Shown: positions 2,811-11,559 of the stretch, piece after piece | Position numbering within the stretch: position 1 is the stretch's first letter | How the letters are laid out: every line of letters starts with the position of its first letter | DNA from: a virus | Taxonomy: Duplodnaviria; Heunggongvirae; Uroviricota; Caudoviricetes | Strand: one strand, 5' to 3' | IMG/VR virus record: IMGVR_UViG_2877958089_000001 | Length of the DNA stretch: 11,559 nt | Translations under genes and position numbers: made by a program | Notes under the pieces: generated by a model | Databases searched by the model: none | Told to the model about the DNA's origin: nothing | Seen by the model: the letters and a program-made list of their open reading frames with translations, nothing else

Positions 2811-3194
2811 ATGCGTGATATTCAGATGGTTCTTGAACGTTGGGGAGCGTGGGCGGCTAATAATCATGAAGATGTGACCTGGTCGTCCATTGCCGCCGGT
2901 TTTAAGGGATTAATTCCTTCAAAAGTAAAATCTCGCCCGCAATGTTGTGACGATGACGCGATGATCATTTGCGGGTGCATGGCCCGTCTGAAAAAGAACA
3001 ACAGCGATTTGCACGATTTATTAGTAGATTATTATGTAGTCGGTATGACATTCATGTCACTGGCAGGTAAGCATTGCTGCTCTGATGGTTATATCGGGAA
3101 AAGGTTACAGAAGGCTGAGGGCATAATTGAAGGGATGTTAATGGCATTAGATATCCGGTTAGAGATGGATATCGTTGTTAATAACTCTAATTAA
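2811..3194 (+). CDS. quuD: Late-gene antiterminator Q (short Q of the phage 82 / DLP12 QuuD type), 127 aa
   Basis: ATG 2811 preceded by GGAGAAAG. Cys-rich segments ([24 protein letters not shown]) typical of zinc-binding Q proteins. Position immediately upstream of terminator hairpins and the lysis cassette. Recognised from memory as the DLP12 Q-like protein. Confidence 0.8.
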
Positions 3195-3227
3195 TATGCC
3201 AATTGTTTACTGAAAGTTATTAAAAAT

Positions 3228-3245
3228 GGGGCGTTGCAACGCCCC
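3228..3245 (-). terminator. GC-rich perfect palindrome GGGGCGTTGCAACGCCCC followed by a T-run on the minus strand; probable intrinsic terminator of the porin gene
   Basis: Palindrome read from the sequence; on the minus strand it is followed by ATTTTTAAT. Lies about 140 nt downstream of the porin stop codon in the minus-strand direction. Confidence 0.5.
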
Positions 3246-3333
3246 CAAAAATAAAGGGTAATATATAACAGAAGGTTTATATAGTTAGAAGCAAGGTTGT
3301 GCTCCTAAAGGAAGTGGCTTGAGGGAGCCACTT

Positions 3334-3373
3334 ATATGTTGGGGAGGCAACGCCTCCCGCAACATATCTTTTT
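3334..3373 (+). terminator. tR'-like intrinsic terminator downstream of Q (long hairpin plus CTTTTT)
   Basis: ATATGTTG-GGGAGGC-AAC-GCCTCCC-G-CAACATAT forms an approximately 15-bp stem with one bulge, immediately followed by CTTTTT (3368-3373). Location 140-180 nt downstream of the Q stop matches the lambdoid pR'/tR' arrangement. Confidence 0.55.
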
Positions 3374-3383
3374 CGTAATCAGA

Positions 3384-4481
3384 TTAGAACTGGTAAACCA
3401 GACCTACAGCAACGATGTCATCAGTGCTTACACCGAGTGCTTTAGTGAAGTCATTTTTGTCAAGCAGGTTGATTTTGTAATCAACGAAAGTAGACATATT
3501 TTTGTTGAAGTAATAGGTTGCACCTACATCAACATATTTGACTAAGTCCTGATCGCCCCATACTCCAAGATCCTTACCTTTAGATTGCAGGTAAGCAACG
3601 GACGGACGCAGACCGAAATCGAACTGATATTGTGCAACAGCTTCGAAGTTTTGAGCTTTATTAGCAACGAAGTGATCAGCAAATACAGTCATATTCTGGG
3701 TTTCAGAATAGGTAGTGGCCAGGTAAATGTTGTTAGCGTCATATTTCAGACCTGCGGCCCAAACTTCTGCATTTTTACCGGAAGCAAATACTTCAGGAAG
3801 AACTTTCCCTGCATTAACTTGAGTGTCGGTACGATCAGATTTCGCATAAGTTGCACCGATACCGAATCCTTCGTATTCATAGGTAGCAGAGAAACCGAAG
3901 CCATCACCGTTACCTTCGGTGTAGTTATCGAAATCGCTACGATCGTTTTTGCCTTGGTACTGAGCAGCAAAGTTCAGACCATCAACCAGACCAAAGAAGT
4001 CGTTGTTACGATAGGTTGCAACACCAGTGGTGCGACCAGTCATGAACACATCTGTTTGGGTCCAGGTATCGCCACCGAATTCTGGCAGAACGTCAGTCCA
4101 CGCACCGATGTCGTATGCTACACCGTAGTTACGGCCGTAATCGATTGAGCCGTAGTCACCGAATTTCAGGCCTGCAAATGCAAGACGGGTTTTGTCTTTG
4201 GAGGAACCTTGAGATTCAGCGCGGTTGCCTTTGAATTCATATTCCCACTGACCGAAACCAGTCAGCTGATCGTTGATTTGGGTTTCGCCTTTGAAGCCCA
4301 GACGAACATAAGTAGTATCACCATCATCTGCATCGTTAGAGGAAAAGTAGTGCTTGGCATTAACTTTCCCGTACAGATCCAGCTTGTTACTGTCTTTATT
4401 ATAAATTTCAGCTGCCTGAGCAGACATCGCCATCAGTACTGATGCAGCTACAGCAGAAATTGCCACTGTTAATTTTTTCAT
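3384..4481 (-). CDS. nmpC: Outer-membrane general porin, OmpC/OmpF family (prophage-encoded NmpC / Lc-like), intact 365 aa
   Basis: Signal peptide [23 protein letters not shown] followed by AEIYNKD; porin-like Gly/Tyr/Asp-rich beta-strand pattern; C-terminal ...GLVYQF with terminal Phe. Recognised from memory as the DLP12 / PA-2 phage porin. Confidence 0.93.
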
Positions 4482-4959
4482 CGTGAGCCCTTTTTTTTGA
4501 ACTATTATTAAAAAATGATGTCACTGCGCGATAAATATTCATCTAATCAATGTGATTATTTCAAGATGTAAGTTTTAGTTTCTCATTTAATTTGTGAAGT
4601 AGATCTCTATTTTTATCTGAACTTTTTCTATCGAAACCTATTTATGGCTCTTATTTGAACAAAAATAAATCTATTAGCTAATTTATATTAATGGCTGTTA
4701 TTTATGGTGGTTCTATAATTCGTCTGTTTAATTTAAACCGGCTAAAAATAACACTGGAAATTATTTATTGGTTATTTGTTGAGGTTTTCTTATGTATTTG
4801 TGGTGATGTTTTGAACACTCGGTAGCATTCTCATAAATATCATTCAGTGGTTTACGTACGTAAAAAATTGGTTATGCTGTTAAGAGTGGTTACTTCGTCA
4901 CACAGCTTAAACCCGCCGTCGAGCTGGTTTTTCCATTTTTTGAGTCTCGATATTAGCTG

Positions 4960-5016
4960 ATAACTCAATACCTGAGTTATTCACTGACTCGGAGTCAGTT
5001 ACGTTTCTGCTTTTTT
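4960..5016 (+). promoter_or_regulatory. Two adjacent palindromes (ATAACTCA-n5-TGAGTTAT at 4960-4980; ACTGACTC-G-GAGTCAGT at 4983-4999) followed by a T-rich tract, about 70 bp upstream of the holin
   Basis: Read directly from the sequence; function (terminator-like structure in the late leader or operator) is inferred. Confidence 0.35.
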
Positions 5017-5069
5017 GCGATACGTTGTATTCCCTCAATTTACACCCGCTTTGTCTGCGAGGTGGGGTT

Positions 5070-5285
5070 ATGAAATTCATGGATAAGTTAACAACTGGAG
5101 TCGCCTATGGCACCTCAGCAGGTAGTGCCGGTTACTGGTTTTTACAGCTGCTCGATAAAGTCACTCCCTCACAGTGGGCAGCAATAGGTGTGCTGGGTAG
5201 CCTGGTATTTGGCCTGCTGACGTACCTGACAAACCTTTATTTCAAGATTAAAGAAGATAAGCGCAAGGCTGCGAGAGGTGAATAA
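5070..5285 (+). CDS. essD: Class II holin / pinholin, phage 21 S-like, 71 aa, dual-start motif MKFM
   Basis: GGTGGGG Shine-Dalgarno before ATG 5070. Met1-Lys2-Phe3-Met4 dual start, two hydrophobic segments, charged C-terminus [13 protein letters not shown]. Stop overlaps the next ATG as TAATG. The ORF-track start at 5025 is an upstream in-frame extension. Confidence 0.88.
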
Positions 5286-5292: not shown

Positions 5293-5392
5293 NNNNNNNN
5301 NNNNNNNNNNNNNNNNNNNNNNNNNNNNNNNNNNNNNNNNNNNNNNNNNNNNNNNNNNNNNNNNNNNNNNNNNNNNNNNNNNNNNNNNNNNN
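5293..5392. other. Run of 100 N; must stand for at least about 0.6 kb (most of the endolysin plus the 5' part of Rz)
   Basis: Holin and Rz C-terminus flank the gap; an endolysin (about 165 aa) and about 64 codons of Rz cannot fit in 100 nt. Confidence 0.95.
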
Positions 5393-11025: not shown

Positions 11026-11559
11026 CTGGCCGGAACTAATGAATTTATTGGTGAAGGTGATGCATATATTCCGCCTCATACAGGTCTGCCAGCAAACAGT
11101 ACCGATATTGCACCACCAGATATTCCTGCTGGCTTTGTGGCTGTTTTCAACAGTGATGAGGCATCGTGGCATCTCGTTGAAGATCATCGGGGTAAAACGG
11201 TTTATGACGTGGCTTCCGGCGACGCGTTATTTATTTCTGAACTCGGCTCATTACCGGAAAATGTCACCTGGTTATCCCCGGAAGGGGAGTTTCAGAAGTG
11301 GAACGGCACAGCTTGGGTGAAGGATACGGAAGCAGAAAAACTGTTCCGGATCCGTGAGGCGGAAGAAACAAAAAACAGCCTGATGCAGGTAGCCAGTGAG
11401 CATATAGCGCCGCTTCAGGATGCTGTGGATCTGGAGATCGCAACGGAGGAAGAAACCTTGTTGCTGGAAGCCTGGAAAAAGTATCGGGTGTTGCTGAACC
11501 GTGTTGATACATCAACTGCACCTGATATTGAGTGGCCTACGAACCCTGTCAGGGAGTAA
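11026..11559 (+). pseudogene. tfaD: Tail fibre assembly protein (Tfa) lacking its own N-terminus and start codon; C-terminus complete (stop at 11557-11559)
   Basis: Frame-1 translation [50 protein letters not shown] ... [21 protein letters not shown] matches lambdoid Tfa; no ATG/GTG/TTG in frame between the upstream stop (10942) and GTG 11137. Confidence 0.75.

Follow-up and report, generated by a model that had tools for sequence, protein, structure and literature searches.

Does the late transcript of a lambdoid prophage run antisense through a porin gene carried by the prophage itself? The question is raised by the 11,559-nucleotide stretch of phage DNA in IMG/VR record IMGVR_UViG_2877958089_000001 (the whole of which is called here the window), where an OmpC-family porin gene lies between, and on the opposite strand to, the gene of the Q-type late antiterminator QuuD and the holin gene essD. 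The initial annotation of this DNA had located the late promoter and its terminator, tR', between Q and the porin, had equated the slot of the porin with that of the toxin genes in Shiga toxin (Stx) phages, and had predicted that a Q-antiterminated transcript would cross the whole porin gene and shut it off upon induction. The analysis leads to a different placement, in which the porin cassette quite probably lies between Q and its late promoter, PR', and the late transcript starts beyond the porin without crossing it. With the late start downstream of the porin, antisense shut-off by a Q-modified transcript is therefore unlikely.

Only RNA polymerase that initiates at a cognate promoter, equipped with Q-binding and sigma-dependent pause elements, is modified by Q proteins (bioRxiv 10.1101/651190). 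In the window, a PR' homologue of the QuuD/933W type, recognized by homology to the PR' of phages Sp5 and H-19B, is found at 4851-4893 on the plus strand, on the holin side of the porin, with a -35 element TTTACG (4851-4856, plus) inside the palindrome TTTACGTACGTAAA (4851-4864), a -10 element TATGCT (4873-4878, plus) and a predicted transcription start at A4885 (plus) transferred from Sp5. In this Stx2a phage, differential RNA-seq (dRNA-seq) and Term-seq put the PR' start 257 nt upstream of the 3' end of tR' (PMC7547250), and 257 nt counted back from the tR' T-tract in the Sakai sequence fall on the bracketed A of TAAG[A]G, 7 nt past the -10 element TATCAT. DNA homology of the window to H-19B and the Stx2 phages extends through Q to 3143, is then lost and returns only at 4850-4932, a segment whose counterpart in the Stx phages begins at the end of Q. 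The sequence TGnTAAGAGTGGTTAC (4878-4893, plus) and the hairpin and T-run that follow it are invariant in the window, K-12, PA-2, Sp5, H-19B and phiP27, the PR' motif is found in SfIV too, and the block TAAGAGTGGTTAC is a candidate for the pause element of PR'. The PR' motif and the clade-specific palindrome each occur once in the window, and the 189-bp spacer between the end of Q and the porin stop codon contains a copy of neither. A scan for consensus promoters returned none on either strand of 3195-5069, but it also missed the known nmpC promoter and the PR' homologue, and is too strict to decide the matter.

The linkage of this promoter to Q was surveyed through an exact-pattern scan of IMG/VR for the PR' motif, which returned 120 loci, 106 of them with the family context. 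A Q core (Pfam PF06530), 42-100% identical to QuuD, lies upstream of the motif and on the same strand in 88 of these 106 loci, and no other arrangement of Q and motif was seen among the 106; of the 18 loci lacking a Q match, 16 hold less than 1.4 kb of upstream sequence. Q abuts the motif (<150 bp) in 31 of the 88 loci, and an insert of 0.15-4 kb separates the two in the other 57, 23 of which have a reverse-oriented porin as the insert; in the window, the QuuD core ends about 1.7 kb upstream of the PR' motif. Homology and linkage thus jointly support the region 4851-4893 as the target of QuuD, and the PR' homologue would be expected to be active and QuuD-responsive in this strain.

The palindrome over the -35 element differs by Q clade yet remains palindromic. 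The form TTTACGTACGTAAA accompanies QuuD-type Q proteins, TTTACGATCGTAAA accompanies those of the 933W/H-19B type, and TGTTATAACA, GCGGTCCGC and GCGTACGC go with more distant Qs. This retained symmetry points to a binding site, and makes the palindrome a candidate for the Q-binding element; we did not find the Q-clade palindrome described in the papers that we read, and its tracking of Q clades may interest specialists in phage transcription. In loci L012-L131, the palindrome is followed by A5 and its two ends lie about 34 and 21 nt ahead of the predicted late start, and the forms recorded in the promoter family are ACGTACGT, ACGATCGT, GCGGTCCGC, GCGTACGC, TGTTATAACA, GGAATTCC and TGTCATGACA. 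The pR' of phage 21 (OL657228; Q21 structures 6P18 and 6JNX) shows the same order of promoter, pause element (+2 to +8), terminator (+3 to +50) and S21-type holin; phage 21 has no porin. Its Q21 belongs to the same Pfam family and its solved structure is a distant match for QuuD, but the two proteins are only 29% identical, and the Q-binding element of phage 21 is a direct repeat in the promoter spacer, whereas promoters of the QuuD family present a palindrome over the -35 element.

The gap between Q and PR' seems to be a place where accessory genes are inserted quite generally. In phiP27 (locus L007, 1144-2509), a GIY-YIG nuclease gene lies between Q and PR', and in ev087 (locus L009, 4381-6300) the interval holds a reverse-oriented blc lipocalin gene and a forward ybgA-like gene. 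Phage ev087, with a Q 86% identical to QuuD and no invariant motif, was considered as a counter-example and rejected: it has the clade palindrome and a -10 element about 1.9 kb downstream of Q, and conforms to the Q-PR' pattern, though its transcribed part has diverged. In the 1986 PA-2 record (J02580), a second "CRP binding site" was annotated at 1067-1087, which is window 4885-4905. This segment is exactly the invariant stretch that the late promoters of this family transcribe first, and the old annotation is probably a misassignment; the site is better explained as part of PR'.

Comparison with the Stx phages 933W, Sp5 and H-19B (StxS locus, PMC7547250), whose Q is about 80% identical, reveals homologous -35 and -10 elements, start-site context and proximal hairpin under a different local order. 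The PR' of the Stx phages overlaps the Q gene at its end, and tRNA genes and stx lie downstream of PR'/tR' on the late strand, whereas in the window the promoter comes after 1.7 kb of porin cassette in reverse orientation, only 185 nt of leader separate it from the holin, and a search for tRNA genes found none. The slot of the porin, upstream of the late promoter and bracketed by terminators, is therefore not that of stx, and the earlier equation of the two has to be corrected.

We propose that the cassette is a self-contained, reverse-oriented cargo gene, or "moron", comprising a CRP-dependent sigma-70 promoter region, the porin gene and a structured 3' untranslated region (3'UTR), which would have been inserted between the Q gene and its cognate PR' (4851-4885) and not past PR'/tR'. 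From a start at about 4885, late transcription would run past one or two short terminators and reach essD, the first late gene, after 185 nt, while a plus-strand hairpin and T-run at 3334-3375 would stop ordinary transcripts exiting Q before they enter the porin. The cassette would accordingly be flanked by convergent terminators on one side and by its own promoter region on the other, and neither induction nor Q expression should by itself switch the porin off through antisense late transcription.

Between the predicted start and essD, a promoter-proximal terminator hairpin and T-run, conserved across the promoter family, is found at 4909-4941 (plus), and a further hairpin, ACTGACTC/GAGTCAGT, with a U-rich tract behind it (4983-5019, plus), is a possible additional tR' with weak fold support (z = -1.3). 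Several observations weigh against a late start at 4885. The assignment of 4851-4893 to QuuD rests on homology and linkage and not on a transcript assay, and the correlation between Q and palindrome may partly represent shared descent, because Q and PR' are inherited together. The promoter-proximal terminator is also weaker in this allele. At position 4925, in the 3' arm of its stem, the window has T where K-12 has G (T is also seen in PA-2 and several other loci), and this T abolishes the canonical hairpin (-8.4 vs -13.9 kcal/mol) and might permit higher basal read-through into the lysis genes. Furthermore, a promoter-like string of low quality in the Q-porin spacer (TTGCAA, 19 nt, TAATAT; 3238-3264), ahead of the hairpin and T-run at 3334-3375, might be a minor plus-strand promoter, and a start for essD that has been derived from published primers would fall near 4530 and not at 4885, although this position, too, is beyond the porin coding sequence in the direction of the holin.

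The gene that the late transcript would bypass is complete, as the initial annotation had recognized. It consists of an uninterrupted open reading frame (ORF) of 365 aa (3384-4481, minus strand), free of frameshifts, stops and insertion sequences, which encodes a 23-aa signal peptide (4413-4481, minus; as annotated for PA-2 Lc) and a mature porin (3387-4412, minus) with the N-terminus AEIYNK, in agreement with the PA-2 annotation and the mature OmpC chains of the PDB, and with the C-terminus GLVYQF, that is, a terminal Phe. The protein, a full-length Gram-negative porin of the 16-strand OmpC/OmpF class, covers positions 1-337 of the 337 in the Pfam profile Porin_1 (PF00267; E = 1.8e-156) and aligns end to end, from residue 24 on, with the structures of OmpC, OmpK36 and PhoE (E about 1e-136). 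It is identical at 362 of 365 residues to Lc of phage PA-2, from which it differs by V59A, R99H and V154F, and at 362 of 365 to K-12 NmpC rebuilt without the insertion sequence IS5. The lc locus of PA-2 (J02580; Blasband et al., 1986) shares the orientation, 3'UTR, upstream region and downstream promoter block of the window, but PA-2 is an inducible phage and the window copy resides in a DLP12-type remnant. In the DLP12 (qsr') prophage of K-12, nmpC occupies the same quuD-essD locus (95.2% DNA identity without IS5), and IS5, inserted after codon 346, replaces the last 18 residues, with the last beta-strand and the C-terminal Phe; alignment shows that the insertion point TTAG, duplicated in K-12, is unoccupied in the window (3442-3445), which bears out the contrast with K-12 drawn in the initial annotation. 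The gene is thus an intact copy of the lc/nmpC lysogenic-conversion porin of lambdoid phages, an element of already known biology, and its earlier description, including its antisense position between Q and the holin, is correct far beyond chance.

The lc/nmpC porin has been on record since the 1980s, and so many Escherichia coli genomes hold it intact that its presence here is ordinary. Many E. coli chromosomes carry the 1875-bp block (3195-5069) with 100% identity, and 2466 of 5426 complete genomes have it in colinear form (>=80% covered); it is also present in 36 phage records, including PA-2 lc at 97.8% DNA identity over 1875 bp. At least 1000 contigs encode exactly this porin protein, which goes by names that include "outer membrane porin protein LC". 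A 120-bp probe over the IS5 site matched 1069 complete genomes, those with the 3' end of this allele, and was uninterrupted in 770, and the split copies among those sampled belong to laboratory or K-12-type strains; outside K-12, the intact porin is the normal state.

The porin also has, as had been noted, an AT-rich upstream region of its own. The guanine-cytosine (GC) profile, at 25-34% GC over about 4350-4950, delimits a regulatory region at 4482-4850 (minus), in which the annotated CRP site of PA-2 maps to 4590-4610 (minus) with 0 mismatches. Our own reading of the hexamers yields a candidate -35 element TTGAAA (4559-4564, minus) and a candidate -10 element near 4536-4541 (minus), and the porin start is predicted near 4527-4529 (minus). 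The K-12 nmpC promoter lies at most 199 bp from the ATG, starts at a G, is active and drives the IS5 transposase; it is activated by CRP, and OmpR, IHF and MprA are listed as its repressors (PMC11677980).

We infer that the porin would be made during lysogeny. PA-2 lysogens make Lc, which argues against a silent gene. The competing view that survives best is that the intact porin is quiescent in its host, through H-NS acting on the AT-rich region or through OmpR, IHF or MprA, with little resulting phenotype; we hold it to be rather unlikely, though less so than any other alternative considered here. In its favor are the low GC content (25-34%) of the upstream region, the repressors listed for the K-12 promoter (PMC11677980) and the title of Prilipov et al. 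(1998), as cited in PMC3333887, which calls an intact nmpC quiescent in E. coli B. Against it, the K-12 promoter yields detectable transcripts (PMC11677980), and NmpC contributes to the heat resistance of strain AW1.7 according to the mention of Ruan et al. (2011) in PMC4563881. Since the literature offers both expressed and quiescent intact copies, an intact gene does not guarantee expression. The earlier suggestion of lysogenic expression, with effects on phage receptors and permeability, hence agrees with established Lc/NmpC biology, but the step from an intact copy to an expressed one does not hold as such, as E. coli B illustrates. The phenotype of the strain hinges on the CRP/OmpR-type regulation of the porin, together with the action of its ipeX tail on OmpC and OmpF.

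Work by Rueggeberg and co-workers reportedly proposes a sigma-E promoter for essD that cooperates with QuuD. A start in this region can be derived from a fragment of the DLP12 lysis-operon regulatory region, cloned from -121 to +650, as described in PMC7918800 (citing Rueggeberg et al., 2015), because its primers map to window positions 4409 and about 5193 and give a +1 near 4530. The lysis genes might then be transcribed mainly from this sigma-E-type promoter, essDp, abutting the porin start codon (+1 about 4530, plus), with QuuD acting there; the RNA made there would cover the porin promoter and 5' untranslated region in antisense, but not the coding sequence, and could hinder initiation of porin transcription. 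A GAACT-N17-TCACT string at 4499-4525 and a K-12 peak for sigma-S RNA polymerase between insH and essD, obtained by systematic evolution of ligands by exponential enrichment (SELEX; PMC5493296), are consistent with this alternative. We nonetheless regard it as doubtful, since the +1 is deduced from primer positions and nearly coincides with the porin start on the opposite strand, the string departs from the strict sigma-E pattern, for which 4400-5100 contains no match, and the site, unlike 4851-4893, is not conserved with the Q-linked promoter family. The essDp start (about 4499-4530, plus) falls within a few bases of the predicted porin start (4527-4529, minus), and the two could form a face-to-face or overlapping divergent pair with mutual interference, if both are real.

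The remaining alternatives concern transcripts that would enter the porin from the Q side, and bring into focus the 189-bp spacer. On its minus strand, the spacer encodes a porin 3'UTR of about 163 nt with five hairpins (3221-3383; -65.1 kcal/mol, z = -7.7), closed by an intrinsic terminator of the porin transcript, GGGGCGTTGCAACGCCCC then ATTTTTAAT (3219-3245, minus), which was identified by terminator scan and fold; the porin-strand RNA ends in GGGGCGUUGCAACGCCCC then AUUUUU. In length and position, this region matches ipeX and would correspond to it, ipeX being the nmpC/lc 3'UTR RNA of about 167 nt located between stop codon and terminator, as Castillo-Keller et al. (2006) are summarized in PMC12197685. 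According to the literature, the ipeX tail lowers OmpC and OmpF. The 260-bp segment containing the window 3'UTR is 98% identical to K-12 and PA-2; ipeX has no Rfam family, and an activity of the window 3'UTR on OmpC/OmpF would be expected. The effect of ipeX on OmpC and OmpF alters the phage-receptor profile.

Also within the spacer, just before the porin stop codon, a 15-bp hairpin followed by CTTTTTCG is found on the plus strand (3334-3375, hairpin 3334-3367; z = -4.6). This hairpin belongs to the porin 3'UTR array, is likely to terminate transcripts that come out of Q, and was probably mistaken for tR' in the initial annotation. Across 17 distinct alleles, variants of the main hairpins give G.U pairs on the porin (minus) strand and A.C mismatches on the plus strand; these events are few, and all point in the same direction. 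With pairing kept only on the minus strand, selection acts on the porin-strand RNA.

In lambda, terminators downstream of Q do not stop N-modified complexes. Antisense transcription across the porin might thus arise upon induction from N-modified early transcripts (pR, nin region, Q) passing the 3334-3375 terminator, at least in phages such as PA-2 and PhiR29_1, given that the porin is convergent with Q and that the same block is present in intact phages. We deem this route improbable, because the flux of early transcripts would lie far below that of late transcription, and it is unavailable in the present case, where the matching prophage in a complete genome has none of the genes N, cI, O and P between int and Q. 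Still less probable is the extension of this idea in which, in intact PA-2-type relatives, N-modified early transcription silences the porin together with ipeX and effects a timed return to host porins before lysis, the cassette of the defective copy studied here being, on the same reading, one that would be fully insulated and behave like a host gene. Least tenable of all is the arrangement originally envisaged, with PR' and tR' inside 3195-3383 and a Q-modified transcript running antisense through the porin and its promoter, for although PR' directly follows Q in many lambdoid phages (31 of the 88 loci, phage 21) and the spacer offers both a hairpin with T-run on the plus strand (3334-3375) and a TAATAT that weakly resembles a -10 element (3259-3264), it bears no homology to any PR' of the QuuD family and no motif, palindrome or consensus promoter, its variants keep pairing on the minus strand only, a complete PR' homologue is present at 4851-4893, and other DNA likewise separates Q from its promoter in 57 of the 88 loci.

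The late start placed at about 4885 on the holin side of the porin is set in a locus whose flanking genes are readily recognized. The quuD gene (2811-3194, plus) encodes a 127-aa Q-type late antiterminator (PF06530, Phage_antitermQ; 8.7e-54), whose core, residues 1-121, is common to the Q proteins of H-19B and 933W and is followed by a different C-terminal tail; this core shares 81% identity with the Q of H-19B, itself close to the Q of 933W-type phages, and identity to the Q of ev087 is 86%. On the other side, essD (5070-5285, plus) encodes a class II pinholin of the S21 type with a dual start (MKFM), identified by Pfam PF04971 (2e-35) and homology to phage 21 S. Two short ORFs of this region were considered as genes and rejected as unsupported: one of 57 aa at 4907-5080 (minus), with no Pfam match, and one of 69 aa at 3336-3545 (plus), the "ORF1" of the PA-2 record, which lies antisense inside the porin gene.

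The window, a scaffold, is interrupted twice by exactly 100 N (1816-1915 and 5293-5392); between these runs, which are assembly gaps and not deletions, the segment 1916-5292, with Q, porin and holin, is gap-free and 100% identical to one complete genome. Apart from the N runs, the window is 99.9-100% identical to a DLP12-like defective prophage of E. coli AMSCJX02 (NZ_CP031105.1), which adjoins a tRNA-Arg gene and has the annotated order intD, quuD, porin, essD, rrrD, rzpD, bor; the host element is a DLP12-type defective prophage at argU. The first N run stands for 2366 bp of NZ_CP031105.1 with yfdR/yfdQ/yfdP-like genes, and the interval from int to Q of that prophage shows no N, cI, O or P genes. 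The second stands for 679 bp that include most of the lysozyme gene rrrD and the 5' end of rzpD, and the seeming lack of an endolysin gene in the window is therefore due to an assembly gap, not to a deletion. The portal gene is truncated and runs into tail-fibre assembly sequence, and the prophage is therefore defective, without particle formation.

Several further features were recorded in the window. The integrase gene (1-1164) is an intact ORF of 387 aa, while that of NZ_CP031105.1 is annotated as a pseudogene with an internal stop; the two sequences differ by a single base over the first 1815 bp of the window. Past the P21-type holin, the ORF map shows Rz/Rz1, bor, ybcV and ybcW, and the segment 8447-10931 holds intact genes for a large terminase subunit (641 aa) and a head-tail joining protein. 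An Rfam search (E <= 1) returned nothing in 3195-5069, including no ipeX or StxS family, and gave as its only strong hit a full-length match to IS009 (RF02111) at 11318-11516 (plus; 221.6 bits, E = 7e-55), within the region of the tail-fibre assembly (tfa) gene.

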